A stretch of 64,000 nucleotides of DNA from Nitrosopumilaceae archaeon (GTDB lineage: Archaea; Thermoproteota; Nitrososphaeria; Nitrososphaerales; Nitrosopumilaceae). The position numbers and the translations under genes are program-made. The stretch covers positions 1,984,001 through 2,048,000 of the forward strand of contig CBDCCK010000002.1 of assembly GCA_965214835.1 (NCBI GenBank), given 5' to 3'. This document shows, piece by piece, positions 49,474-64,000 of this stretch; within the stretch, counting starts at the first letter, position 1, and each line of letters begins with the position of its first letter. The notes beneath the pieces are model-generated. The model was not told where the DNA came from, made no database searches, and saw nothing but the letters and a program-made list of their open reading frames with translations.

Positions 49474-51229
49474 GTAATAGGTTAGCCCCTGCCTAGAGTT
49501 AAAGTCACACCCACCGTCTTTTCAGGCATGAAAATCACAACTGCAGGCAGATTAGTGCAGGATTGCTAGGGGCAGACGACCACGTACCCGGGGTTTCTGA
49601 CCAGCGCGTCCCTGATCATGTCCGTAACGTTACACCCCCGGAGGCGCCATGTCTCGATGCACGTCAACATGTTACCGAACATCTTCTGTCCGTCTTTTGT
49701 CCGCAGTCCGAACCGTATCTTGCGCGCGATCACGCCGGGCCTCAGCGTGCGCTCTGCCAGGTTGTTGGTGGGATCCATCCCAGGACGCGTCGTAAACGTG
49801 TAGAGAAACTCCGAGGCGTTGTCAATCTTTGTGGCACAACTGTCACATCCTTCCTTCCTGTATATGGCGGCAATCTCGCGTGTTTCTGCCACCCGACTGT
49901 CGTGCTGCCTGGCAGCCTCCTCCGGCGGCCCCGGCCCCTTGGCGCAATGCATCTGCCACTTGAGGCGCTCGCCTGCGGCGCGAACCTCCGGGGAGTCCGT
50001 TTTCTCGCTTTGGGCATCTGCCTCCCGGATTATGTGGGCCCAGCACCGCTGCCTGTTCCTGCCAAAGAACTTGTCGTATCCGGGGTATCCGTCAGTCACC
50101 CCGACTCTGGGCACGTATGAAAAGTGCTCATCCAGTACGGATGCCCTCCTGCTGTCAGTTGCCACCATGTGCGCGCCGACGGCATTGCCGTCCTTGACGC
50201 CCACTGCCACCCACATGTAGCCGCTCTTGCCGTCGTATGGCATCCCCGTCTCGTCCATGTGGACGTGGTCGCATCCTGCAATGTCTTTTTTGATGTCCTC
50301 CACGCACGGATCAAGCTTCTTTGCAACGGCCTTGAGGCAGTTCTGTATCATCGCCTTGCTTACATCAATTTCAAAGATCTCCTTTACGATGCGCCTGATC
50401 GAGCCGACGGATGCCGGCATGGTGTACAGGGTGCCGATATAGGAGGCAATGTTGGGTCCAAACTCGGTGCCCGGAACGACCAGCCCGCCCCCGTTTGTCG
50501 TGGTGATGGCGCCGCACTTGCGGCACTTGCGGCGGGTAAAGTAGTGCTGTGTCGTGACCGGCTCTGGGATCTCTGGAATGTCAGTAGCCATCCTGGTTCC
50601 GGCGGGAACCGGATCTGTCAGGTCGCGCCCGTTGCACGCGCCGCACATGTCAGGCACGTGGTTCATTTCCCGGGTCGGTGTTCTCCTGTGTGATATGCCC
50701 TCGTGTCCGGGCCTGCGGCCCGGCCTTGTAGGTGCCCTTCCAGATGCCCCTGCCGCGGCTGCTGCCTTTTTCTGCCTGGTCGGAATCGAGTTCTGCGAGG
50801 AGGGGCTGTGCGGGTTCTCATAATATGTGATGCGTTGTTTGAACTGCTTGATTTGTGCTGTCTGCGTCGCGATTTGCGCGGCAGAGACGGCATTGTCAGA
50901 TTTGCGTCCCGCCTTCTCAGCGGCAAGCTCCTCCCGTGTCCTCTGATGTTCCTTCTGCTCCTTCTGAAGCTTGCCTTGCGTCCTCTGATGTTCCTTCTGC
51001 TCCTTCTGAAGCTTGCCTTGCGTCCTCTGATGTTCCTTCTGCTCCTTCTGAAGCTTGCCTTGCGTCCTCTGATGTTCCTTCTGCTCCTTCTGAAGTTCCG
51101 CTTTTTCGCGGGCAAGCTCATTGCATAGTTCCTTGAATTCCGAGGCTGTAGGCATGTATTTCCCGGGTAATGATAGTTTATAGATCAGGTGGTCAGAAAA
51201 AATCAACTAGGCAGGGGCTAACCTATTAC
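49474..51229 (-). mobile_element. Complete IS66-family element
   Basis: 23-bp perfect TIR GTAATAGGTTAGCCCCTGCCTAG and an 8-bp TSD ACCAAACA. Confidence 0.95.
49566..51155 (-). CDS. IS66 transposase with a 14-aa tandem coiled-coil repeat
   Basis: MDETG, TDGY, QRCWAH and PTNNLAER. QKEQKEHQRTQGKL repeated about 3.7 times (42-bp unit). Confidence 0.92.
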   Translation of the reverse strand: MPTASEFKELCNELAREKAELQKEQKEHQRTQGKLQKEQKEHQRTQGKLQKEQKEHQRTQGKLQKEQKEHQRTREELAAEKAGRKSDNAVSAAQIATQTAQIKQFKQRITYYENPHSPSSQNSIPTRQKKAAAAAGASGRAPTRPGRRPGHEGISHRRTPTREMNHVPDMCGACNGRDLTDPVPAGTRMATDIPEIPEPVTTQHYFTRRKCRKCGAITTTNGGGLVVPGTEFGPNIASYIGTLYTMPASVGSIRRIVKEIFEIDVSKAMIQNCLKAVAKKLDPCVEDIKKDIAGCDHVHMDETGMPYDGKSGYMWVAVGVKDGNAVGAHMVATDSRRASVLDEHFSYVPRVGVTDGYPGYDKFFGRNRQRCWAHIIREADAQSEKTDSPEVRAAGERLKWQMHCAKGPGPPEEAARQHDSRVAETREIAAIYRKEGCDSCATKIDNASEFLYTFTTRPGMDPTNNLAERTLRPGVIARKIRFGLRTKDGQKMFGNMLTCIETWRLRGCNVTDMIRDALVRNPGYVVVCP

Positions 51230-51792
51230 ACCAAACATACTCTGTCACAACAATAGTGCGTGAAATTACCGATGATAAATATGCAGTAAAGTCCGTAACC
51301 AGGATTGACGGCGAAAAAATTTCCTCTGAAAAATTCAGGATGACGGCAATTGACAACTCAACCTACAAACTGGTAAACAACGGTCTGGGCATACGCCAGG
51401 TTTTCACCGACATTCCCAGTGAAGTGGCAGGTGCAGGTTCGGGATCCTCGACGCCCAACAACGCAAGAATTGATCTGTATGATGGAGAGCATGGCACGCC
51501 GCACACATTGACACTGCATGACAACTATTCCGGATGTGCGACGCTTAACCAGGCTGTATTTCAGGCACCTGTAAGGCCAGACACCGTTGATGTGACATGG
51601 GAGGCAAGCCCGTTTTACATGCACTGGTGCTTTATCCCCCACGAGTTCCAACAGGGTGAGGTTAGACACGGAACCGAAACCGTGTTTTTGAACGGCCATG
51701 GCGATCGAAGAGGCAGCCATGCGTTTGACAATCCTCATGTGGGCACAACTTGGTATAGTGTAGAGGCGGATTTCGAATACGGTGTGTGGTAA

Positions 51793-52023
51793 CACATACT
51801 GACGCATTCTTTTTTTTATCCTAGGCTGATACTTGGCTTTTGCGGGCTGGTGCTGGCTGGAGTGGGCTCGCTGTCTCTGGCGCATCAAATCCGTCTAGAT
51901 TCTATGTCCTTTGGCCCGTCATATCTGTTACAAGATCTACCCGCACTAGCTCTGCTTGTAGTTAGTGTGGCATTACTGACAGTTTTGATTTACAAGATCC
52001 GCTCCAAAAGGCTGTTTCTTTAA
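51793..52023 (+). other. Hydrophobic 2-TM reading frame after cassette B (start unclear)
   Basis: YPRLILGFCGLVLAGVGSL...ALLVVSVALLTVLIYKIRSKR. The GTG at 51786 is out of frame by 1 nt across a T8 run. Confidence 0.4.
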
Positions 52024-52083
52024 CCACTGCAAGCGATACAAGGCCCGCTCCACGCCAGATCATCGCTGATTGGTGCGTTGTCA

Positions 52084-52225
52084 GTCACGGATTTACAGCG
52101 CATGCCAGATCTGCCGGTCAGGCGGCTTTTGGCGCCCCGGCGCCCCCGGCCTAGAAAAAAAAGAAGCATGCCACAAACCGATATCAATTGCTATATAACA
52201 AAGGCGCATAACGACCTGTAACAAC
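52084..52225 (+). promoter_or_regulatory. Shared cassette promoter, copy A
   Basis: See 49113. Confidence 0.85.
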
Positions 52226-53104
52226 ATGAACAACAAAGCAAAAAAAACCGTACTGATCCTGTTCGGTTCGCTGATCGCCGCGGCGGTTCTGCCGCTCGGC
52301 GTGGCCGGGATGGCAGATGCTGCCGCAGACAGGGAGCAGACCAAGGAAGGCTTCAAAAGCGACGTAAAGCAGTGGCTGCAGAGCCTTGATGCAGACAAGC
52401 AGTCAAGGGCCGAAAAGGCCGAGGAGCTAAAGCGGGACTATAACGAGTTCCTGCTGGACACGATAGAGCACGTACGCGTCCTGACCGGCACCGTCGATCT
52501 AACGCTTGAGGAGAAAAAGGCCGCAATGCAGTACATCGTGGATGAGACGATAAAAGACGAGCGGTTCAAGCTTGCAACGGACGGCGACAGCGGCGGCGAC
52601 AGGCTCGACTCGGAGTTTCTGGACCTGCTCGGGATACAGACGGCCCAGGCCACGTGTCCGGCCACCACCAATCCGACGTACCGGCAGCTGGCAATCGACA
52701 TCGACGGCGGCACGTATGGGGGACACGCGTTTAACGGGGACAACGGCCTGTACCTTGTCCTGTACGAGGACGATCCTGGCAGCTGCGAGAGGACGTTTAC
52801 GCTCTCGTTCTACGACGAGGATCACCCAACACTTGACGCACTTTATGACGGCCTGAGATTCTTCCTGTACAACAGGGTGTTTGACATCGAATCATTCGTT
52901 ATCCGGAACAACAGCCAGATAATATTCGACAATTCCTGGAGCTCCGGCAATCAATATGCCTGTCTAGACGGGGCTGAGGGATGCCACGACAGCGGTACGC
53001 TGAGCTACACCCCTGGCCAGATGGTCTACGTAAGCAACACCTGGAACCACATGATGAGTACGTCTGATACAAACCCGTCCCTGACAAAGGTCTCTGTACC
53101 TTGA
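52226..53104 (+). CDS. Secreted protein (cassette A)
   Basis: Signal peptide, helical pro-region, internal TAQA|TC site and a 4-Cys C-terminal domain ending in NTWNHMM. Confidence 0.85.
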   Translation: MNNKAKKTVLILFGSLIAAAVLPLGVAGMADAAADREQTKEGFKSDVKQWLQSLDADKQSRAEKAEELKRDYNEFLLDTIEHVRVLTGTVDLTLEEKKAAMQYIVDETIKDERFKLATDGDSGGDRLDSEFLDLLGIQTAQATCPATTNPTYRQLAIDIDGGTYGGHAFNGDNGLYLVLYEDDPGSCERTFTLSFYDEDHPTLDALYDGLRFFLYNRVFDIESFVIRNNSQIIFDNSWSSGNQYACLDGAEGCHDSGTLSYTPGQMVYVSNTWNHMMSTSDTNPSLTKVSVP

Positions 53105-53123
53105 CCCCCTTTTTATTTTAGAA

Positions 53124-53540
53124 TTGCCGTTTGCTGCCGGCAGGCTGGTCCGATTCTTTACGGAGAAAAAGACAAACTTACTGTATGTCGTAATGCCTGC
53201 ATGCGGATCATTGATGTTGATCGATAACTGGTGTCGGAAGGCGATAGATGAGGCGATAGATGTCGTAATGCCTGCATGCGGATCATTGATGCAGTTTTTG
53301 GGTTTTTTTGAGATAAGCACGAGATATGCTACGTTGAACCCTGCAGCCATGATCATGCTCTTCTTTTGGGAGCTGACATCAATATACAAAATAGAAGTTG
53401 ACTATCTTTTAGCATTCTTTATAGTGATTGGCTCGAACCTGCTGTTCTGGGTTCCAATGGCCCGCTATGTCATGATTCCGCTTCTGAACAGGGTGTTTTA
53501 CCCCAAAGGTCGAGATGGGAAGGGATCATCTAACCGCTGA
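53124..53540 (+). CDS. Membrane protein downstream of cassette A
   Basis: Several hydrophobic helices and an internal 31-bp duplication (VVMPACGSLM twice). Confidence 0.55.
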   Translation: MPFAAGRLVRFFTEKKTNLLYVVMPACGSLMLIDNWCRKAIDEAIDVVMPACGSLMQFLGFFEISTRYATLNPAAMIMLFFWELTSIYKIEVDYLLAFFIVIGSNLLFWVPMARYVMIPLLNRVFYPKGRDGKGSSNR

Positions 53541-54347
53541 TTTTCACATCCTGTGCGTGACTCAGACTCGAACCCTTCCTAGTTAAGACCCAATCCAAGA
53601 ATGGGTTTGTTGGGCAACCTGCGCCTTATGGGTTTATCAAATTCGACGGCGCAAGAGTTTACCTAGCCGGCATTTGCAATGGTGGCGGATGACGTGTCAT
53701 GCCTGCCCACAACCTAAACACAAGGCACTGGCATCACTGGTCACGCACCATTGCCCTCAGCAGATCCCTTTTCCCATTCCAGACATCCTGAATCCGGCGG
53801 ATATCTTGCACTTTTTTGCACAGCTCGGAAAGGCATCGCAATACGGGAAATACTGAAAATTCAAAATCTCAAAAGCCACTCTCAGTATAACCCAAAGTAT
53901 ATCATCAGAAAACATGACATAATTGTTCATGGCCAAGGCGGTTCTATAGGCTATTTTTTCACGACTTGGCCAGAAAACTTGACTCGAAATGATTTTTCGT
54001 TCAAATACGAAGGCGGATAATCAAAGTGAGGGGCGGCGATTCTGCAAAATTATTTCCATGACTCCAAATCAGAAAATTTGACTCTGGAAATGGCTTTTCA
54101 CATATGAAGATGGGCAATCAGAACCAAAAGGACAATCATAACAACAAAGAAGTTTTGAAGTGCCTTAAATTCAGAAGGGATGGGAAGAAACATCGGAAAC
54201 GGATAGGTTATTTTCAGAATCAGAATCCAAGACAAGTTGACATGATATAATATCGCCAGATTATCATAAAAAAATCACGATCATGTAGATTAATGTCATA
54301 TCACAGGGCCCGGGCATGTAATTTTCTCAGATAATATCATGATAATC

Positions 54348-54604
54348 AAAGAGCGATTAAAAATTACAGGTTTTTGACGGGCAAAAGATTCAAAAGATTC
54401 CAAGATGTACGGTATATCGTGACAGGATAGAAAGGGAAATAGCCAATACCCTCAGATTGTGTAAACTCCGTGTTTTCATGCTCATTTGATTCCTGTCATG
54501 ATTCTTGGTATTTCTTCGTACACGATATTATAATTTTAAAATTGGTTATCTGTGGTTAATCGTAATAATTTCAGCCCAGGGGGATGACTTTGGCCGGTCG
54601 GTTC
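54348..54604 (+). repeat. About 250-bp diverged direct repeat (copy 2 at 55683-55934, partial copy at 60123-60270)
   Basis: Shared GACAGGATAGAAAGGGAAATAGCCAATACCCTCAGA and TAATTTCAGCCCAGGGG. Confidence 0.85.
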
Positions 54605-54620
54605 ATAGCTATGGTGTGAA

Positions 54621-54833
54621 GTCTGAGGAAATCCTTCACTCAGGTAGGGTACAAGGGACTGGGACGACTCTGACGTCCCAGAAGGCTGTGGGATACAGGG
54701 CCCACGTCAGGGGCCTGGGAGTCTTTGATTTTCAGGCCCCGGAGGGGGCCTGACGTGTGGTGGATTGGAGACCCAGAAGGGTATCCATGGGAGACTTGAC
54801 TGGTCGTTTTTGTGTCTGGTGAAGTAATGCGAG
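54621..54833 (+). ncRNA. Conserved structured element, module 1
   Basis: Stems CTGAG/CTCAG, GGGACG/CGTCCC and CACGTCAGG/CCTGACGTG. Ends with TAATGCGAG. Confidence 0.5.
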
Positions 54834-54902
54834 AGATCCGGTCCAAGTGCCGGCAACGTCAGGCAGAAAAAAAATAGTGAAAATGTAGCTTTTTGCGATA
54901 GT

Positions 54903-55084
54903 CAAAAGTTACACTATGTACATTTTGGGGCGGCCAAAAGTTACACTATGTACATTTTGGGGCGGCCAAAAGTTACACTATGTACATTTTGGGGCGGCCA
55001 AAAGTTACACTATGTACATTTTGGGGCGGCCAAAAGTTACACTATGTACATTTTGGGGCGGCCAAAAGTTACACTATGTACATT
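54903..55084 (+). repeat. 32-bp tandem repeat, about 5.7 copies
   Basis: CAAAAGTTACACTATGTACATTTTGGGGCGGC, no spacers. Confidence 0.95.
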
Positions 55085-55137
55085 ATGTACATTTGGCAAA
55101 AAGTTGGCCCTTAAACGTGAAATTACAGATACAGTAC

Positions 55138-55434
55138 ATGCCTGAAAAAAAATATTATAGAAAGGTGCGCAGGCAGGGCCATAGCCTCGTCATCACGATT
55201 CCAAATGCACTGGTGGAGAATCTCGACATTGACGAGGATCAGATCGTCGAGTTTGTGAGTTTTGAGGATCGGATGGAACTAATCCCCATGCGGACCCAGC
55301 ACACTTCATCAAGCGAAGGCGGCAAGGACAAGTACGATCTTGCGCTTGACAAGGCAATGGAGAATTCCAAAAAGCACGGGGAGGAACCTGATGCCTCCTA
55401 TGATAAAAAACTGGAAAGGCTGCATCTCAAATGA
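55138..55434 (+). CDS. AbrB/MazE/SpoVT-family DNA-binding protein 1
   Basis: RKVRRQGHSLVITIPNALVENLDI. Confidence 0.85.
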   Translation: MPEKKYYRKVRRQGHSLVITIPNALVENLDIDEDQIVEFVSFEDRMELIPMRTQHTSSSEGGKDKYDLALDKAMENSKKHGEEPDASYDKKLERLHLK

Positions 55435-55570
55435 CCAGGGCCGTCACTCCCTGCCTCTCCTTTTCATCTAGGGTCTCGAAGATCTTGTGGATTTTCGGGC
55501 TCCTTGACCACACGTGACACTGCTCAAAGCCAAGTTTTCCCACTTTGTCATGTTGTATCTGACATGCCCG
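55427..55570 (-). other. Conserved convergent small reading frame (CHVWxxSPKIH)
   Basis: Homolog at 59975-60110 differs mainly at third codon positions. Confidence 0.35.
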
Positions 55571-56109
55571 CGACGGCTTTCTGGGATACGGACTCTGCCT
55601 ATGGGGCATCCTGCAACCACAGGCGACAGGATCCGTCCTGTCCTTGGGAAGATGATCTCCTCGGATGATTCCTATGACAGCCAATGAGTGATTAAAAATT
55701 GTAGACTTTTGGCGGGCAAAAGGTTCAAAAGATTCCGAGACACATGATGTATCATGACAGGATAGAAAGGGAAATAGCCAATACCCTCAGAATTGATAAA
55801 CTCTGTTTTTCATGTTCTTGATTCCTGTCATATTTTTTGATATTTCTCCGGACATGATATCATAATTTTAAAATAATTATCTGGGGTTAATTGTAATAAT
55901 TTCAGCCCAGGGGATGATTTTGGCCAGTCGATTCGGAACGGTCATCCGGGGTCTGGAGGGACTAATCTGGCACTCACCGCTTATTTTGGACCCAAGCTGA
56001 ACGGCTTTGACAATTCTTCTTTGCTAACTGGCTAGTCTGAATCTAGCGTTGGGTTCGCTGTTTATGAATGACTTATGGATCGTAAGAAACGATTACGATG
56101 TAGCAGACA

Positions 56110-58653
56110 TTACTTGCTGTGTTTTATTTCCTCAGTATATTTTCTAGTTAAATTATAAAGATCTAACTTATGCTCGGACAATTTTGTCTTTATCAGTTCC
56201 TCTGTAATGTCGTCCAATGGGTATCGGTTGAAGCAAGTATAGAATTTTATGACATTTTCCTTCAAATTGTCGAGGTTCGCCTCTCTGATGACATACGGTT
56301 TTTGCGTAGGAAACGCGTCACGGTTCAACGTATTGGCAGGATGAATTAAAATTGGTTTTAGGTCGCATTCTTCGTAATACTTGTTGAACCAACCTATGTC
56401 GTTATCAAGCTGGCCTATCTCTTTTTTGGAAATGTGTGGTCGATCATATTTCACCTCGTTTTTACACGATATGAGCCAGTACATTTTACCGCCAACGCTC
56501 CACAAGTTGTCAGGTCCCTTGTCACTTTCTTTTTCTGGCCGTTGTGAGGGAAAACCAAGCAGTTCTCCAAGTCCCTTGATCCCCTCTTCAAAGGATTCGG
56601 AGGGAGTGCCAAATGCCACACTGTCTAAAGTACGCCTAAGGTCAGCCATTAGCAAATTGTGGGATTCGTGTTTTCTTATCCATCCTAAAATTTCTGCTTC
56701 ACGGCCATTTGTGTCACTTGAAAGTCTGTTGTAGACCGTACCTAGTTCTGGTTTGTGTAACAAATTATTTTTTTTGAAAGCTTTCTTCTGTTTTTCCATT
56801 GAACCTGTTGCATCGCTGGGATAAAGATAAGTGGCCATTAGCTGTAAATACCAGCCCTTGTCATTTTCTGCAACGGCATCCATGATTTTATTAACTGTTT
56901 TAACGGCGCCGGAAAAATCGTCATGCTGGTATTTTAACTCTGCATCACGTTCTAGTTGGAAGATCTTCAGAAATTCATTACTTAAACATACAGGTTCAAC
57001 CTCTTTCATTTTTTTATCATAATAGCTCTTCCAAGATTTCTCTCGATCCAAAGACTGCTGTATGAGCTTTTCAACTACATCCAACATGTTCCTTCCTTCC
57101 TTTTTCATTTCCTTGGCAAGTATCTCTGCAATTTCAATTTGTTTTTTAGTTTTATCGGATAGAAACTTACGCTTGTCGGTTTCTGAAACAAAATCTGACA
57201 GGCTGTCTCCAGTGATGATAACTATGCACCAGTCGCTACCTCCTCTGATTGCCCTGCCTATGCCCTGTTCTATGCGCTGAGATAATAGTCGCCTCACAGC
57301 GGAAGACCCTTCTCGTACTTTTTGCACATACGATTCAAACAATGACATATGTACAGGCATCGAATCCAAGCACAGAATCCGACATAGACTGTCAGGCAAA
57401 TCGACTCCGTCATATTTGTTTACCAAGACAGTCACCTTCGTGCATCTGTTTTCCCGTATTGCATCTTTGACTTTTTTTAGTTTTTCTTCTAAATTTTTCA
57501 CATCAGCAATGTCCCCACCTTCCCGAGTCCAATCCTCAGCGAGTTTTGACGAGGGAACTATCGACATCGTGCCAAATTCCCCATGCTTTTCGGCCAATTT
57601 GGAAACCCACTTGATCATCTTATATCTAGTCAAAGATGGACTGACTAGTGTAGGAATTATAACGAGTCGTTCACCGCGGTATTTGGATGCTGAGGTTAAT
57701 GGATTAGACACGCTGTCTGCATCTATGCCCAGATCTCTTACTAAAAAGGCGTCATCGTTGAGAGTTGCAGAGAGAAAAATTCGCCGCTTGGCACCTGTGA
57801 ATGAGGGAAGCATATCGATTGGTGACAGCCTCAAAGAAATTTGCATCTTTTTACCGGAGAAGAGGCAGGCAGAAGAAGGGATCTTGTTTTTTAGAAAATC
57901 CCATGCAAACTTTACACTTTGTACGTCTTTGTGTTCGTTCAATATTTCTAGCACGTTTTTGCGATTATCATGCCATGCCCAGAATGGTACTGCCATGACG
58001 CCGTCCGAGCCCCCTTTGATATCGATGCAGGTTCCTTGCGCTTGGCGCATTAGCGGCGCTTCAAACAACGCCCACAGCTCGTTGTAAAGACGTTTTTCTT
58101 CTTCCGAATCATTTTTTGAGACAGTGATAGAGAAAGATTTACGGATTATATCTACACAAGCATGAGCATCATCCATGACCAGAGCCCCAATTGGGACAAT
58201 GTCTTTACCAGATCCAGAAACGGCAAAAACAGACTTGCCGTTAAATAATTTCTGGCAGGTCGTGATCAGGATGGCCTTGGAGTTGCGAAAATCTAAAGGA
58301 AGTTTCCTATCTTCACAGGCCAGAACTGTTTTTATCCCGAATGACTCTGCTTCGCGAGTGGCCTGCTTGACCAGATAAGTGTCAGGACACAAGAAAATAG
58401 CTGGTCCCAGTCCAGCGTTTAAGCTTGATTGCAGCATTAAAAGGCCCAGAAGGGTTTTTCCCTCACCGGTATGGAGTTTGACTATGACATCTTTTTTATC
58501 AAGATGGTTTTCATGCCAGTTTTTTAATATTGTTTCTTGGTTGGTGCGCAGATCTTCCTTGGTTACTTGCTTGTCCAGGCGCTCAAAAATCTTCAGAGGA
58601 TCTGTCTCGTTGGCGTTTGATTCCCCTCCCAGCAGCCTATCAAAATCAACCAA
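56110..58653 (-). CDS. SF2 (DinG/XPD-like) helicase with a C-terminal PD-(D/E)xK-like nuclease (Hna-like)
   Basis: TGEGKT, DDAH, SAT, GVDLP, QGIGRAIR and GPDNLW...ISCKNE. Confidence 0.85.
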   Translation of the reverse strand: MVDFDRLLGGESNANETDPLKIFERLDKQVTKEDLRTNQETILKNWHENHLDKKDVIVKLHTGEGKTLLGLLMLQSSLNAGLGPAIFLCPDTYLVKQATREAESFGIKTVLACEDRKLPLDFRNSKAILITTCQKLFNGKSVFAVSGSGKDIVPIGALVMDDAHACVDIIRKSFSITVSKNDSEEEKRLYNELWALFEAPLMRQAQGTCIDIKGGSDGVMAVPFWAWHDNRKNVLEILNEHKDVQSVKFAWDFLKNKIPSSACLFSGKKMQISLRLSPIDMLPSFTGAKRRIFLSATLNDDAFLVRDLGIDADSVSNPLTSASKYRGERLVIIPTLVSPSLTRYKMIKWVSKLAEKHGEFGTMSIVPSSKLAEDWTREGGDIADVKNLEEKLKKVKDAIRENRCTKVTVLVNKYDGVDLPDSLCRILCLDSMPVHMSLFESYVQKVREGSSAVRRLLSQRIEQGIGRAIRGGSDWCIVIITGDSLSDFVSETDKRKFLSDKTKKQIEIAEILAKEMKKEGRNMLDVVEKLIQQSLDREKSWKSYYDKKMKEVEPVCLSNEFLKIFQLERDAELKYQHDDFSGAVKTVNKIMDAVAENDKGWYLQLMATYLYPSDATGSMEKQKKAFKKNNLLHKPELGTVYNRLSSDTNGREAEILGWIRKHESHNLLMADLRRTLDSVAFGTPSESFEEGIKGLGELLGFPSQRPEKESDKGPDNLWSVGGKMYWLISCKNEVKYDRPHISKKEIGQLDNDIGWFNKYYEECDLKPILIHPANTLNRDAFPTQKPYVIREANLDNLKENVIKFYTCFNRYPLDDITEELIKTKLSEHKLDLYNLTRKYTEEIKHSK

Positions 58654-59038
58654 TCCGTCTCGATTCTATGATCTGACATACCTTGTAAAAACCATCTGTT
58701 TTTGCCACAGTAATGAAGCAGATTACCTGTTCGGATCTGATCGAAAGGCGGTCTAAAGTGGTTCCAGTGTACGATAAAAAGTACGAAGTGCTTTGTCTCA
58801 TACGCGCTTCCTTCCCAGTCAAATTCTGCGTTTATGATCTTGCCGTTCGGATCTCCATCAAGAAAGTCCCTGATCCCATACGGAACCAAGTTCCTGCTTC
58901 ACTTCATCTTCCAGCTTTCCTCCAATTTCTTCGAATCCACCAGTATCAGGTAGAAGCGGTATGCGCTATCAAGCCTTAGGGATGATCCGAAATTGAAATT
59001 AGAAACCTCGCAAATGCCCGGATTTTTCTGTAAGTTTG

Positions 59039-59149
59039 CAGCTAAGTGAAAAGTACCCTGAAATTGAGTAAAAACAAAAACTGGGCATGAGACACAACGC
59101 CTCAGCAGTAAGGCAAAACAACAAATCTCATTTACATTTCACTTAGCTG
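59039..59149. mobile_element. MITE family B
   Basis: IR CAGCTAAGTGAAAAGTA and TACATTTCACTTAGCTG. Confidence 0.7.
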
Positions 59150-59316
59150 GTTTGCCAAGTAGTTTTATAGATAACCTATCATTTGTAAGAATTTTAATCT
59201 ATTAATGTAAATTCATTTATGCTCGTCAGAATTTGCTAATTTCGAATCAGCTCTCAGATCTACCTTCATGTATCAATATGGTTTTGGGTCTATTTTAATC
59301 AGTAGAAGATAGGCGG

Positions 59317-59455
59317 GTCTGAGGAAATCTCTTACTCGGGTAGGGTTGAGGGACGGACGATATGACGTCCCAGAAGGCTGTGGGGATCAGGGATCCACGT
59401 TATGTGGCTCTTGTGTTCTGGTTTCATTTTCTGTGTTTTGTGTATTAATGCGAGT
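59317..59455 (+). ncRNA. Conserved structured element, module 2
   Basis: Stems CTGAG/CTCGG, GGACG/CGTCC and CCAC/GTGG. Ends with TAATGCGAG. Confidence 0.5.
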
Positions 59456-59490
59456 TGAAATTCCGTTACTGGCCCTCGGAGATTGGGGCC

Positions 59491-59634
59491 TTTGGCGCCG
59501 TTTTTTGGCGCCTTTGGCCCCTGTAAGATAGGTACCAAACGCACCTTTGGCGCCGTTTTTTGGCGCCATTGGCCCCTGTCGGGCAGGTACCAAACGCACC
59601 TTTGGCGCCGTTTTTTGGCGCCTTTGGCCCCTGT
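59491..59634 (+). repeat. 55-bp tandem repeat, about 2.6 copies
   Basis: TTTGGCGCCGTTTTTTGGCGCCTTTGGCCCCTGT...GGTACCAAACGCACC. Confidence 0.9.
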
Positions 59635-59665
59635 CTTAAATGAATATCCAACATTTGCTGATGGC

Positions 59666-59974
59666 ATGGAAAAGATACATGAGCGAAGGCTCAGCATCAA
59701 GGACAACTCTTCATTTTTTGCGGTCATTCCATCCGTGATGGTACAAAGCCTAGGTTTGAGACCAGACGAGTACATACGGTTCCACGACCTTGGCGGCAAA
59801 GTCGTGCTGACACCCGGTGGAAAGAGCCTGTCAAAAAAGGACCTCACAGACATTGACTGGTATGAGCGGGCCTTTGATGAGGCAATGAAGGAAGGCAGAC
59901 AAAAAATAGAATGCTCCCCCGCCGGAGAAGCCACCTCCAGGACGAGTGCCTTGGAAAAATTCAGGATCAGATAG
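59666..59974 (+). CDS. AbrB/MazE/SpoVT-family DNA-binding protein 2
   Basis: RRLSIKDNSSFFAVIPSVMVQSLGLRPDEYIRF. The C-terminal helix resembles that of protein 1. Confidence 0.8.
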   Translation: MEKIHERRLSIKDNSSFFAVIPSVMVQSLGLRPDEYIRFHDLGGKVVLTPGGKSLSKKDLTDIDWYERAFDEAMKEGRQKIECSPAGEATSRTSALEKFRIR

Positions 59975-60290
59975 ACACCAGCCCTGTGTCTTTTTCCCCT
60001 CATCCTCAAGGGAGGCGTGAATCTGGTGTATCTTGGGGCTTTTGAACCATACGTGACACCTGTCAGACCCCTCTCTTTCCACTTTGTCATGTTGTACCTT
60101 ACGTGCTCCCAACGGCTGTTTACAACTCTGTTTCTCATGTTTTGGTTCCTGCCATGTTTTCTGATAGTTTCGGCCCCCTTCTCCAGACATGATATTATTA
60201 TGAAATCTTGAGGTTAATCATCTGTGATTAATCGTAGTGATTTCAGCCCGCGAGAATATCTCGGCCCTCGATCCGGAATGACAGTGTGGA

Positions 60291-60433
60291 GTCTGAGGGA
60301 ATTTTTCACTCAGGTAAAGATAAGGGACTGGGACGGCTCTGACGTCCCGGAAGGTTGTGGGGGATCAGGTGCCCTGTTGAGGGTCCCGGGCGTCCTGGTC
60401 TTGTTTTTTGTGAAATCGTAGGGTAATGCGAGT
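60291..60433 (+). ncRNA. Conserved structured element, module 3
   Basis: Stems CTGAG/CTCAG, GGGACG/CGTCCC and GCCCT/AGGGT. Ends with TAATGCGAG. Confidence 0.5.
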
Positions 60434-60451
60434 CAGCTTGCCACGAATGTC

Positions 60452-60492
60452 TTTGCAAAGCTTGCAAGGTTTTTTTGCAAAGCTTGCAAAAA
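60452..60492 (+). repeat. TTTGCAAAGCTTGCAA repeated twice (palindromic units)
   Basis: Seen directly, at the same position relative to the gene as the arrays in modules 1 and 2. Confidence 0.7.
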
Positions 60493-60524
60493 CGCGCCCT
60501 GAGTTTGTTTCAAACTCTGAATGC

Positions 60525-60833
60525 ATGGAATCCGTACAAAAAACATGGCCGAGTCATCTGCGGGCACAGCGGCGGGGCAGTCGTGTCCAGCGTCCCAAAG
60601 AGACTTGTAGACAAGCTGTGGCTTGGGGCAGGGGGGAGAGGGAGGGACTTCTCATAGCGGGCGAGTCAAACGGCACGACAATGGCAAAGCCGATGGAGGC
60701 AAGGCTTGTAAAAAAGGATCTCAAGACGGGAGATGCGGGCGGCGCGTCCTCAAAGGCGCGGGACAGGCCCAAGCACGACAATCCCTTTGATGACCCCGGC
60801 TTTGATCCGCTCCCAGGGCCGGAGATCAAATGA
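60525..60833 (+). pseudogene. AbrB-like protein 3 with compensating frameshifts
   Basis: An alternative frame reads RVICGHSGGAVVSSVPKRLVDKLWLG. KKDL is shared with protein 2. Confidence 0.6.
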
Positions 60834-60863
60834 TGATTACACATGCAGCGGTTGCCAGTAACA

Positions 60864-61115
60864 GGGAAGAAATGTTCCCGCTAGTGGGCTACTGTTGCCA
60901 GCTTCCGGGAAGAAATGTTCCCGCTAGTGGGCTACTGTTGCCAGCTTCCGGGAAGAAATGTTCCCGCTAGTGGGCTACTGTTGCCAGCTTCCGGGAAGAA
61001 ATGTTCCCGCTAGTGGGCTACTGTTGCCAGCTTCCGGGAAGAAATGTTCCCGCTAGTGGGCTACTGTAGCCAGCTTCCGGGAAGAAATGTTCCCGCTAGT
61101 GGGCTACTGTAGCCA
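60864..61115 (+). repeat. 43-bp tandem repeat, about 5.9 copies
   Basis: GGGAAGAAATGTTCCCGCTAGTGGGCTACTGTTGCCAGCTTCC, no spacers. Confidence 0.95.
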
Positions 61116-61375
61116 ACTACAGGAAGGATCGTGGTGTTGCATTGCGATCATCCGGCTCGGCCTCTGGCGCTTTAGGAAAATCCCCACTGCCGTCTGCCCG
61201 AGGAGAACTCAGACAGGATAAACGCAGGTATCACGGGGGGATCGCCAAGGCAAGAGCTTGCCCCCTCCCCGGGATGCGATATGGGGACATGATCATCAAG
61301 ACCCCGGCAGGCAGTGCCGCCCGGGGGCAATCTCCCACCATCAACGATCCTTGGCCCTCTTGGCCGGGGATCCGT

Positions 61376-61454
61376 TAGACTTTATGCGTATTTGCCAAAA
61401 ATGACGCAAAGCTGCATGATTTTTTTGATCTGCACCGATTACGCACAATGTCTG
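61376..61454. mobile_element. IS5-derived mini element
   Basis: Ends TAGACTTTATGCGTA and TACGCACAATGTCT. Confidence 0.5.
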
Positions 61455-61633
61455 TTAGGCGACAGCCCCGCTGTTGCCACAAAAATCCAAGCACCTCCTC
61501 TGACATCAAAATTGCGCCCAACCCTCGCAATCGTGTTATCACACGCATTCACATTTTATATGCAATACCACGCACAAGCAATCAATGGTATGTTTTCCTA
61601 TGCCTGCACAATTATTCCAGCTACGTGATGGCG

Positions 61634-62683
61634 ATGAGTGAGACGGTCAGCTTTGATACCTTTACAGATAAGGAGTTTGAGCAGGGATTCCTGAACATAA
61701 TAAGCCATGGCTCAAAAGACAACACATACAAGTTTGCCTTGGCGCGATTCCTGCTTGATTACAGCAGAGACAAAACCGGTACCCATGTGGATTTTGCCGA
61801 TATTGCAAAATACTTTCTAGAGTATTACTGGAATCAGATATGTAAGATGAAGATGAAACATGCCCCTCAGGCAACAAAAAAACCACAGATTGTAAAGATC
61901 ATAGAAAAAGAGTTTCCAAAAAAATACTATCCCGATACATTTAGAGAGACATGTAGGAAAGAGGAATATGAGGAAAACATCCAAAAGTGCATAGAACGCA
62001 TTGAAAAATTGTGCTTTCACAACGTTACTTGGAGGTTCCAGAGAATCAAGGTCGGCAGGGCAACAGAGGTCAGGATGTTCTTTGACTATAGGATCGCCAG
62101 GAAGACGCACAACAACAAACGGTACGTTGATCTTGACTATGGCATAAACCTGAACCCCGACGCCATCGAATTCTTCAAGCGGCATAACGCGGTTCTTCTC
62201 AAGGCGGTAATTCTTGAATGGGCAAAGTTCCTAGAAAAACTCAACGTTGGTCTCCCAAAGTTAATCGTAAAAACCGAAGGAAAAAACATGAAAAGGGGCA
62301 GCCTGACAAGATTTCGAAGGATACTCAATCCGTTCTTCACTGAATGCTTTTATTGTGGAAAGCAGCTGTCAGATGGAAGGAAGACGCATGTGGAACATGT
62401 CATTCCGTTTGACTATATTGCAGAAGACGATATCTGGAATCTCACCCTAGTCTGCCAGCGATGCAACCTGCAAAAGCTTGGGGCGCTACCGCCCAAAAAA
62501 TACATAGACGATCTGGTTAGGCGAAACCAGGATCACAGGGAGCGGATACCGCAGTTGAAAAAATCCCTTACCCGGCTTGACCAAGACTTTGAGAGGGTAG
62601 TCAAAAACCATTATGAGAATGCAAAGTCACACGGATACATGATCCTGAAGAGCCTGCCTTTGGAAAGAATCTCCAATACGTAG
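61634..62683 (+). CDS. HNH endonuclease with an N-terminal TYKFAL domain
   Basis: CFYCG, HVEHVIPF and NLTLVCQRCNLQK. Confidence 0.88.
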   Translation: MSETVSFDTFTDKEFEQGFLNIISHGSKDNTYKFALARFLLDYSRDKTGTHVDFADIAKYFLEYYWNQICKMKMKHAPQATKKPQIVKIIEKEFPKKYYPDTFRETCRKEEYEENIQKCIERIEKLCFHNVTWRFQRIKVGRATEVRMFFDYRIARKTHNNKRYVDLDYGINLNPDAIEFFKRHNAVLLKAVILEWAKFLEKLNVGLPKLIVKTEGKNMKRGSLTRFRRILNPFFTECFYCGKQLSDGRKTHVEHVIPFDYIAEDDIWNLTLVCQRCNLQKLGALPPKKYIDDLVRRNQDHRERIPQLKKSLTRLDQDFERVVKNHYENAKSHGYMILKSLPLERISNT

Positions 62684-63249
62684 TTTGACGGATCTAATAA
62701 CTACAGGGAACTGAAGAGCCTGCCCTGTTTCATGACTGATTCCGGGTCGCTTGGCTCATCTTTGATGTATATCCACTTGCTTTCCAGACGTACAAGTTGG
62801 CCACATGCAAATTCGTGCATAGTTGATATGGGCAGGAGGTGGCCACACACGTAAAAAGCTCAGACTCAAAACACGCTGATCATCCTGGTGATTTTTTGCC
62901 AAACTTCAGACTTCAGGCAGGACTGTGCGACAAGACAGAATGCCTGAAGGATGGCCGGTCAGGCCGCCCTGGTTTTCGGCCACGCCCAAAGCCTCGCAGC
63001 AGAAATTGGCTCCTTCATACGCGCCCACCAGCTGATCAAAAAGCAATATGCATCATGCGGGGCAAGGGCAGGGCAAGCGCAGTAAAAACGGGCGGGCAGC
63101 CTGTATGGATGCCAGTCAGTCAGTCCGAGATCATGCGGTACGCGCACGCTGCCAGATCCCTGTCAGTATGCCTGTCCAGGTCATCCCTGCAGACAGGACA
63201 CCTTTTGTTGCCGTTCATGCACACAAGACGCGGGCACCATAAAAGGGCC

Positions 63250-64000
63250 CTATTTGGCGTCTGGCCCTATCCTTTTTGCAAGCTGCTCCACCATGAGGCG
63301 CAGGTCGGCAATCTCTGCGCCCTTTTCGTCCTCCAGGCTCGCTATCCTCCGGGCCTGCGCGTCGTTTTCCATGCGCAGCCTTGCCGCGTCATCAAGGGTG
63401 AGGGCCGGCACCACCTGCAGGTACTCCTCTGCCAGCTCCAGCGTGTGGGTCTTGAAGTAGTTGCGGTCAAGCTTTACCAGCCCGGAGTGGCCCATCATGT
63501 ACTCCTTTTTGATCAGGCTGGACAGCGGGGACTCCCGGGAGGAGGCCTCCTTGCACGTCTTGTTCCAGAACCGCCTGAAGCCGTTGGTCATCGGGACGTC
63601 GTGCCTGCGCGTCTTGCCGCTGCCGCCTGAGCCGGATCTGTCGCGGAGTCCCGACCTTGTCAGCACGCCGAGTATGTGCTTTTTTATCATGACCATCGAC
63701 AGCCTTCGCGGAAGGCAGCCGGATCCGACAAACAGGGGATCGCCGGGGAGCGGCCTACGTCCAATCCTGTCGGCGCACTCCGCACGATAGTCGTCAAGCG
63801 CCGCATACGCCTCCGGCGTGATGAAGGCCGGATAGCTCTCGCCGGATCCGCGGTATATCTGCAGCTTTGCGCAGACCGGACGCTTGGCGCCGTCCCGCTC
63901 CCCGCCGTCTGCTGCATCCCCCATCTCAAGTGTACCGTCCGGCATCCTGTACACGGGGACGAGATCCCTCCACTCGAGCCCCTCGAACCCGCCGACCCTG
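63250..64000 (-). CDS. Tyrosine recombinase/integrase, C-terminal part (5' end outside the window)
   Basis: RVGG at the edge, NGFRRFW, MMGHS and RNY. Confidence 0.85.
   Translation of the reverse strand, partial: RVGGFEGLEWRDLVPVYRMPDGTLEMGDAADGGERDGAKRPVCAKLQIYRGSGESYPAFITPEAYAALDDYRAECADRIGRRPLPGDPLFVGSGCLPRRLSMVMIKKHILGVLTRSGLRDRSGSGGSGKTRRHDVPMTNGFRRFWNKTCKEASSRESPLSSLIKKEYMMGHSGLVKLDRNYFKTHTLELAEEYLQVVPALTLDDAARLRMENDAQARRIASLEDEKGAEIADLRLMVEQLAKRIGPDAK

Follow-up and report, generated by a model that had tools for sequence, protein, structure and literature searches.

In several conjugation systems, repeated sites are recognized and the DNA is passed to a VirD4/FtsK-type ATPase, as with TraM-sbm-TraD of F, TrwA-TrwB of R388, and TraB-clt of Streptomyces. 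Among other proteins that act at repeats, the partition adaptor ParR has a ribbon-helix-helix (RHH) fold, while MraZ, which has the AbrB fold, recognizes direct repeats that precede its own operon. Here, we analyze an array of units from a Nitrosopumilaceae archaeon in which a three-hairpin element and tandem repeats precede an AbrB-family gene. The array occupies positions 54339-60833 of a 64,000-nt stretch (the window; contig CBDCCK010000002.1, positions 1,984,001 to 2,048,000). Comparison with related elements shows this trio of hairpin element, repeats, and AbrB gene to be a conserved and apparently undescribed partner of a VirD4-like motor.

The elements concerned resemble integrative and conjugative elements (ICEs). 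The accessible text of a survey of thaumarchaeal ICEs (Krupovic et al., 2019, PMC6563490) describes VirD4/TraG-like and VirB4-like ATPases, a prepilin peptidase, a tyrosine integrase, and tRNA targets; it mentions tandem arrays of integrated elements and reports that no relaxase was found. As the available part of PMC4489591 reports, ParM-type partition occurs on SXT/R391 ICEs, and partition can ride on an integrating element.

Self-comparison of the window, nhmmer, and a covariance model (R1) revealed three homologous units on the + strand, each consisting of a leader, a GC-rich three-hairpin core, a tandem repeat, and an AbrB gene, confirming the common part order proposed in a sequence-only reading of this DNA. 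Cores were placed by nhmmer and R1, and repeats were called with Tandem Repeats Finder. Unit 1 comprises an AT-rich leader (54339..54600, + strand; 77-88% identical to other leaders), the core (54612..54753, + strand; R1 119 bits, also found by nhmmer), whose extra hairpins stretch to ~54880 in this copy, a 32-nt repeat present 5.7 times (54903..55084; 100% matches), and the AbrB1 gene (55138..55434, + strand; 98 aa). Its leader contains a conserved TATA-like block (~54526-54541), which might be a promoter. In unit 2, the leader and first ~14 nt of the core (55674..55961, + strand; identified by self-comparison and alignment) are separated by an insertion from the core (59308..59445, + strand; R1 103 bits), a 55-nt repeat present 2.7 times (59489..59635; 93% matches), and the AbrB2 gene (59666..59974, + strand; 102 aa). 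The leader of unit 3 is cut down to its last ~95 nt (60125..60231, + strand; HMM mapping) and precedes the core (60282..60423, + strand; R1 153 bits), two copies of a palindromic 16-nt motif spaced 22 bp start to start (60452..60489; read from the sequence), and AbrB3 (60525..60833, + strand), which the open reading frame list and alignment make readable only over two frameshifts. In the window self-comparison, the leader stretches 54339-54475 and 55674-55810 were 82% identical and the cores formed three-copy families. Repeats end 54, 31, and 35 bp before the AbrB genes of units 1, 2, and 3, as expected from the earlier estimate of about 30-55 bp. Module 2 had been described as lacking a leader, and a fourth unit was thought to begin at 55683. 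The leader at that position exists, but it is the first half of unit 2 and not a separate unit; module 2 seems leaderless because the insertion at ~55962-59313 splits its unit.

In the ~140-240 nt after each AbrB gene, tblastn detected, on the opposite strand, the C-terminal ~50 residues of an ATPase of ~1040 aa. For unit 1, residues 976-1036 of a VirD4-like protein from another genus (genome G005) matched 55430..55673, and we assigned this segment (- strand; tblastn, HMM mapping) as what is left of the 3′ end (the final ~50 codons) of a VirD4/TraG-like ATPase gene. By the same methods, a shorter relic follows AbrB2 (59996..60133, - strand). The earlier observation that no toxin gene follows the AbrB genes is upheld; the relic of an opposite-strand gene lies there instead. 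We also rejected the AbrB proteins as type II toxin-antitoxin antitoxins (MazE/VapB), since the neighbor is the VirD4-like gene or its relic and MazF, PIN, and Doc are absent.

Intact elements occur in the window's own genome (G000, 3.22 Mb, in which the window contig is called C2) at 2743-2749 kb, in a close relative reached via its AbrB protein (G061, record OZ243974.1; locus L042), and twice in G005 (L078 and L079). They share the order integrase(s), actin-like protein (ALP), ATPase, and a convergent AbrB gene preceded by tandem repeats. On the AbrB side, the three-hairpin element is followed by the repeats and then the AbrB gene, which converges with the gene for the ~1040-aa ATPase. In closer relatives, the element further includes an integrase gene next to a tRNA gene and a gene for a ParM-like actin; in more distant ones, it encodes a prepilin peptidase and, as its second ATPase, a VirB4-like protein. 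Given the VirD4-like 3′ relics and these intact relatives, the units in the window thus appear to be truncated ends of tRNA-integrating plasmid/ICE-like elements of Nitrosopumilaceae, left as orphaned relics. Together with the adjoining integrase, these data uphold the earlier proposal that the modules come from integrating plasmid or ICE-like elements and lie in tandem.

We determined how regularly the AbrB gene accompanies the ATPase. Of 401 sampled genomes of the class, 55 encode the VirD4-like protein; for the family, the count is 39 of 223. Among 30 genome loci evaluated over 1.5-kb flanks, 17 had an AbrB-family match and 15 had a convergent AbrB gene at the ATPase stop, 11 of them with tandem repeats. 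Metagenome contigs supplied 79 further loci with 42-65% ATPase identity, 57 of which were evaluable; a convergent AbrB gene lay at the ATPase stop in 52, with tandem repeats in 20. The 20 arrays represent 12 distinct repeat families, lie 31-54 bp before the gene, and differ in sequence from lineage to lineage. Counts of repeat presence and absence depend on the thresholds chosen in this analysis. Thus, homologous loci elsewhere again have an AbrB-family gene with different repeats (11/15 in genomes, 20/52 in metagenomes), as had been anticipated.

Domain searches are consistent with a transfer-type ATPase. In the intact elements, the protein matched Pfam TrwB_AAD_bind (25.5 bits, cut-off 20.5) and TraG-D_C, and in L121 it matched TraG-D_C (27.3, cut-off 22) and T4SS-DNA_transf (20.8, cut-off 20.1); the NCBIfam VirD4-like match fell far below its cut-off. 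No sequence match to the protein was found in the PDB, and a scan of viral contigs with the VirD4-like alignment recovered no relatives. Metagenome loci encode a prepilin peptidase, TraG-D_C/T4SS-DNA_transf proteins, and a DUF87/AAA_10 ATPase; VirB4-like ATPase and prepilin peptidase genes are found in the metagenome loci, L042, and L112. Neither of these two genes turned up in the window or in the minimal G005 elements, and the search for VirB4 was not genome-wide. The ALP matched Pfam ALP_N/MreB and a PHROG family annotated as partition protein (E 7e-15), and the integrases matched Phage_integrase. We dropped a PD-(D/E)xK reading of the VirD4-like C terminus, an alignment impression that no tool supported, and a TFIIB-like reading of a ~280-aa neighbor in the metagenome loci, which had no Pfam match.

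To the AbrB proteins themselves, Pfam MazE_antitoxin/AbrB (PF04014, cut-off 24.7 bits) assigned AbrB1 at 29.3 bits. AbrB2 scored 16.4 bits, below the cut-off, and aligned over its full length with AbrB1-type proteins. AbrB1 consists of an AbrB/SpoVT N-terminal domain, a helix, and a C-terminal LERLHLK tail, and the corresponding tail of AbrB2 is LEKFRIR. A joint family alignment bore out the earlier observation that these two proteins have a common C-terminal helix and tail. Profile searches of 1.84 billion representatives yielded 87 matches at E <= 1e-3, ~30 of them full-length. In every full-length member, the AbrB N-terminal domain and a helix are followed by a linker that is variable and charged, and by a conserved peptide at the extreme C terminus. 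This peptide is of the LEKLRIK type in close relatives and of the NPLDGxxF type in metagenome members, and intermediates occur. In an AF2 model of one family member, the beta-beta-alpha-beta-beta domain had a pLDDT of 87-92, and a helix at residues 58-76 was followed by a flexible tail. The top Foldseek matches were MazE, AbrB, SpoVT, Sso7c4, C68, and C56, all with E >= 0.09.

Selection also acts on these genes. The dN/dS ratio was 0.12 for AbrB1 compared with its G061 copy and 0.17-0.50 for AbrB2 (0.29-0.50 when compared with its paralogues), within a family range of 0.12-0.76. The low ratios suggest that AbrB1 and AbrB2 are, or recently were, functional under purifying selection. AbrB3 had no PF04014 match in either frame piece, and its frame changes at an A-run and a G-run, suggesting a pseudogene or assembly errors. 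Its C-terminal tail reads FDPLPGPEIK; most paralogues are frameshifted at other places, and that of module m7 is continuous.

Tandem Repeats Finder recovered the 32-nt (5.7 copies) and 55-nt (2.7 copies) arrays much as they had been described (32-mer x5.7, 55-mer x2.6). It reported no array for the supposed 16-mer doublet, but the 16-nt palindromic motif does occur twice, at 60452-60467 and 60474-60489, with a period of 22 bp, and a paralogue elsewhere has a 22-nt repeat present 2.7-2.8 times. The 32-nt unit holds an imperfect ~22-bp dyad, and repeat units generally contain dyads. Neither a private repeat for each module nor one-to-one co-evolution of repeat and DNA-reading hairpin, both proposed from the sequence, was supported by comparison. 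The 32-nt array recurs, 5.8 copies long, next to a 96%-identical AbrB1 gene in G061 L042; AbrB2-type genes in G061 L041 and at 1376 kb are accompanied by the 55-nt family; and the 55-mer, the 22-bp motif, the 43-mer found downstream of unit 3, and the 32-mer each recur beside paralogous modules in G000. Further, AbrB1 and the protein of module m9 have nearly the same RKVRRQG-type loop with different repeats. We dropped co-evolution of reading head and repeat, since non-coding divergence is expected anyway and like heads accompany unlike repeats.

Copy numbers differ widely among paralogues. As modules m1 and m2 hold three successive arrays, of which single motifs are amplified in other modules, the repeats probably arise by amplification of different stretches of a shared upstream region. 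In the close clade, repeat periods cluster at 22, 32-34, 43-44, and 53-55 bp, and 15 of 19 repeat families are helically in phase, compared with 49 of 132 background repeats (P=2.5e-4). A CRISPR array was rejected because the units lie head to tail without spacers. Public sequencing runs gave short Logan contigs, and the best DNA run may be the sample behind the window's own assembly. None of the listed contigs spans a tandem array, and the copy numbers given here are assembly values; a few contig joints skip part of the 32-mer or 55-mer arrays and may derive from paralogous copies. In G005, an identical perfect 19-nt repeat is present 14.7 times at L078 8717-8995 and 12.2 times at L079 7223-7453. 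It flanks the core on its outer side, a place taken in G000 by the AT-rich leader.

The three-hairpin core was found by nhmmer in 12 copies at seven loci in G000; G061 has ~12 copies at five loci. A DNA search with the core matched none of 60 sampled relatives (0/60), and beyond G000 and G061 it is visible via the covariance model only. The model detected it in G005 (E 3.5e-7 and 0.25) and G003 (E 0.28), directly upstream of repeats and an AbrB gene. In an alignment fitted to the model, both partners have changed in 14 of 21 pairs; none of 500 shuffles reached the observed score, and slid controls scored far below it. On the AbrB strand, G-U cells outnumber A-C cells 30 to 10, in a count where cells are not independent and the model favors G-U. 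T-runs follow hairpin 3 in most copies, and Rfam 15 gave no match at E <= 1 over 50000-64000. The core is most likely a separate conserved cis element, either a small RNA or a single-strand structure on the AbrB strand.

Every array in G000 and G061 ends at the 3′ flank of a tyrosine integrase gene that converges with it and whose start abuts a tRNA gene. For the window array, the integrase gene (3′ part at 63250..64000, - strand) extends to 64602, beyond the window, and the upstream end of its reading frame overlaps a 96-nt tRNA-Val(CAC) gene at 64552-64647 (G000 C2 2048552-2048647); a tRNA scan found none within the window. At 1307 kb and 1372 kb, integrase fragments are accompanied by partial copies of the tRNA-Val 3′ end. 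The AbrB1-AbrB2-AbrB3 type order is repeated at 3199-3204 kb and in G061, and the unit junctions, which lie inside the VirD4-like relic, are identical at five loci (junction 1) and four loci (junction 2) in the two genomes. Because of these identical junctions, the three-unit block seems to have formed once and then to have been copied with an integrase to several sites; the idea that units were collected piecemeal at this locus does not stand. An integron was rejected as well, since the integrase is convergent with the array and the junctions lie in the VirD4 relic rather than the hairpins. A conserved non-coding left arm (53690..54338, + strand) was seen only ahead of the first unit of arrays; homologous sequence flanks 5-6 further first units in G000 and G061, and the indels that distinguish the copies have lengths not divisible by three. 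One ~11-kb region (G000 C2 ~3194871-3206074), comprising a four-unit array, an integrase, and neighbors, is 99.9-100% identical to G061 L045, which may reflect recent exchange or a common assembly source; other stretches in common between these genomes are 83-96% identical.

Two insertions mark the array and its flank. Alignment with uninterrupted homologous units, one of them in the G061 homologue of the window array, placed the 3.35-kb insertion at ~55962..59313. It sits exactly at the 5′ arm of core hairpin 1, flanked by an imperfect 13-14-nt duplication, and the core, which breaks after ~14 nt, resumes at ~59314. A 3338-nt contig from runs of two studies covers 55802-59139 with zero differences. 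The insertion carries an 847-aa helicase (56110..58653, - strand), which matched the PDC-S28 candidate defense gene over its full length (PADLOC E 2.8e-275) and Pfam ResIII/DEAD, and it also contains a short dispersed repeat. The second insertion (61375..62873; Pfam and genome comparison), consisting of a short dispersed repeat and an HNH endonuclease gene, occurs in G061 L041 as well; the paralogous array at 3203 kb lacks it. Its gene (61448-62683, + strand), between the array and the integrase, encodes a 411-aa protein with a C-terminal HNH nuclease domain and weak PtuB-like and Cas9-HNH-like matches. Short dispersed repeats at 59039-59149 (~110 nt) and 61376-61453 (~80 nt) have ~25 and >40 genome copies at 75-94% identity and look MITE-like. 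Nearer the array, the 43-nt repeat downstream of unit 3 (60864..61115; Tandem Repeats Finder), which the sequence-only reading did not name, is present 5.9 times; paralogous arrays have 2.2 copies. Outside the array are a perfect 32-nt direct repeat (53185-53216 and 53260-53291, 75 bp apart) inside overlapping reading frames and an insertion sequence (49566-51206) with a 546-aa transposase reading frame, which has at least 12 genome copies at 95-99.6% identity and contains a 42-nt coding tandem repeat.

On balance, we think it probable that the AbrB protein binds its own repeats and thereby marks the element's DNA for an ATPase motor, for transfer and/or partition. AbrB dimers or tetramers would bind the dyad-containing repeats, which lie 31-54 bp upstream of the AbrB start and presumably overlap its promoter, forming an autoregulated nucleoprotein complex. 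The C-terminal peptide, on its flexible linker, could then couple this complex to the element's motor. The primary partner would be the VirD4/TraG-like ATPase, making the complex an oriT/clt-like mark for DNA transfer; where a ParM-like protein is present, it could be an alternative partner, giving a centromere-like role. The window modules would be orphans whose motors are gone. A bolder version, which we offer tentatively as possible but doubtful, is that AbrB on its repeats forms the DNA-recognition part of an origin of transfer and, as a non-covalent pilot docking on the ATPase through the C-terminal peptide, replaces a relaxase; orphan arrays would then be trans-mobilizable mini-elements or decoys against incoming relatives.

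Several observations weigh against this reading. Many AbrB copies of the window type are pseudogenes and type-3 genes are mostly broken. Repeats are missing upstream of AbrB at 4 of 15 genome loci and 32 of 52 metagenome loci, and near-identical DNA-reading loops are paired with different repeats. ALP is absent from all 79 metagenome loci, and the ParM link therefore cannot be general. No att direct repeats of at least 12 nt were found, leaving element borders undefined. Covariation of the core is weak in G000 and G061 alone, where 37 of 500 shuffles reach the observed score, and the stronger pair count comes from an alignment fitted to the model. In the metagenome clade, repeat periods are 17-18, 23-24, and 43 bp and only 3 of 12 families are in phase, for which reason we rejected helical phasing as a general rule; in combination, 18 of 31 families are in phase compared with 37% of background (P=0.014, with the representative period of each family chosen by the analyst), and phasing is only suggestive. 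A complex prediction with ALP, VirD4-like residues 470-1097, and AbrB residues 48-100 gave "no answer", which is evidence neither way.

We weighed this proposal against other explanations. AbrB could be a plain autoregulated transcription factor with the repeats as its operator, no link to a motor, and a tail for oligomerization or another role. The repeats do end 31-54 bp from the start codon, at the promoter, many loci lack tandem repeats, and most proteins with the AbrB/MazE fold are regulators, with MazE, AbrB, SpoVT, and, from Sulfolobus plasmid-viruses, C68 and C56 as the closest chains of solved structure. We consider this unlikely, as it does not explain why the AbrB gene keeps its place at the VirD4-like gene's 3′ end (52 of 57 and 15 of 30 loci) or why the best-conserved part outside the DNA-binding domain is the extreme C-terminal peptide, beyond a variable linker. 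Less likely still is type II actin-based partition, in which the repeats would be a centromere, AbrB the ParR analogue, ALP the ParM, and the VirD4-like gene a mere neighbor. Known ParR proteins have the RHH fold, the gene order is unlike parC-parM-parR, L116, L117, and the surroundings of G511 copy b lack ALP, and the metagenome loci without ALP keep both the AbrB-VirD4 pair and the tail motif. Partition would nonetheless fit the ALP matches to the PHROG partition protein and to ALP_N, the minimal G005 element, where AbrB is the only small DNA-binding protein, the repeat periods of the ALP-bearing clade (22, 32-33, 43-44, and 53-55 bp), and the bacterial precedent of ParM-type partition on ICEs in the available part of PMC4489591.

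The three remaining explanations concern the array, the repeats, and their RNA. That the array is an integron-like or memory device, with cassettes recombined at the core hairpins or with host-kept units excluding related plasmids by incompatibility, is suggested by the adjoining integrase, by the precise insertion of a defense gene at hairpin 1 with its short duplication, and by purifying selection on AbrB1 and AbrB2. It is very improbable: the junctions, shared by five and four loci, lie in the VirD4-like relic, arguing that units were not added singly; no array departs from the AbrB1-AbrB2-AbrB3 order; the integrase converges with the array rather than diverging from it; and type-3 genes are mostly broken. 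We give slightly less credence again to the repeats being iterons of a replication origin, with AbrB as initiator or accessory factor and the AT-rich leader as unwinding element. A leader, hairpins, and direct repeats are classical origin anatomy, and the minimal elements have no recognizable replication gene, but AbrB lacks an initiator-like domain, a single block would hardly be expected to hold three different origins, and the constant neighbor is a transfer-type ATPase. Least probable of all is action as RNA, either of the repeats, like the antitoxin of a type III toxin-antitoxin system, or of the core and repeats as 5′ untranslated region of the AbrB mRNA. Internal dyads in the repeats, the excess of G-U over A-C on the AbrB strand, and the T-runs after hairpin 3 would suit such a role; they are set against a protein that is an AbrB-fold DNA binder and not a ToxN-type RNase, the lack of an Rfam family match, and the T-run between core and repeats. 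A ToxIN-like type III toxin-antitoxin system was rejected because the protein has the AbrB fold.

An AbrB gene that is fixed beside a coupling ATPase, often with repeats and always with the C-terminal peptide, is a candidate for DNA choice or hand-over in archaeal conjugation; alternatively, it could encode an AbrB-type centromere adaptor. The three-hairpin element, with its covariation support and its inserted PDC-S28 defense gene, is absent from Rfam. More generally, repeated-module "novel systems" can be truncated ends of mobile elements spread as a block. The literature searched yielded no description of the AbrB-VirD4-like pairing, and supplements may bear on this point: the main text of PMC6563490 lacks the terms SpoVT, actin, ParM, and centromere, and its sole match to MazE is the author name Mazel, while its supplements may annotate the gene.

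How does the system compare with those already described? With ParMRC of R1 and pSK41, it shares tandem direct repeats beside an adaptor gene, a small protein predicted to bind DNA as a dimer and to end in a flexible peptide, and, in the intact close relatives, an actin-like ATPase. It differs in having an AbrB-fold protein where ParR is RHH, in gene order, and in that the actin-like gene is missing from most relatives and from the window array. The N-terminal fold is common to AbrB/MazE/SpoVT regulators, MraZ, C68 (pSSVx), and C56 (pSSVi). To that fold, the family described here adds a helix, a linker, a conserved C-terminal peptide, and a fixed VirD4-like pairing, and it has no toxin partner; unlike MraZ, its members have a single AbrB domain. 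Relaxosome accessory proteins and TraB-clt are alike in their small oligomeric DNA binder or translocase, their short repeated sites, and a gene beside the ATPase gene. Whereas relaxosome accessory proteins have RHH or TraM folds, the predicted binder here has an AbrB fold, and the tail that F carries on TraD is here on the DNA binder. Also unlike relaxosomes, these elements are without a known relaxase in the accessible text of PMC6563490. The gene set of the metagenome loci is that of the thaumarchaeal ICE module described there.

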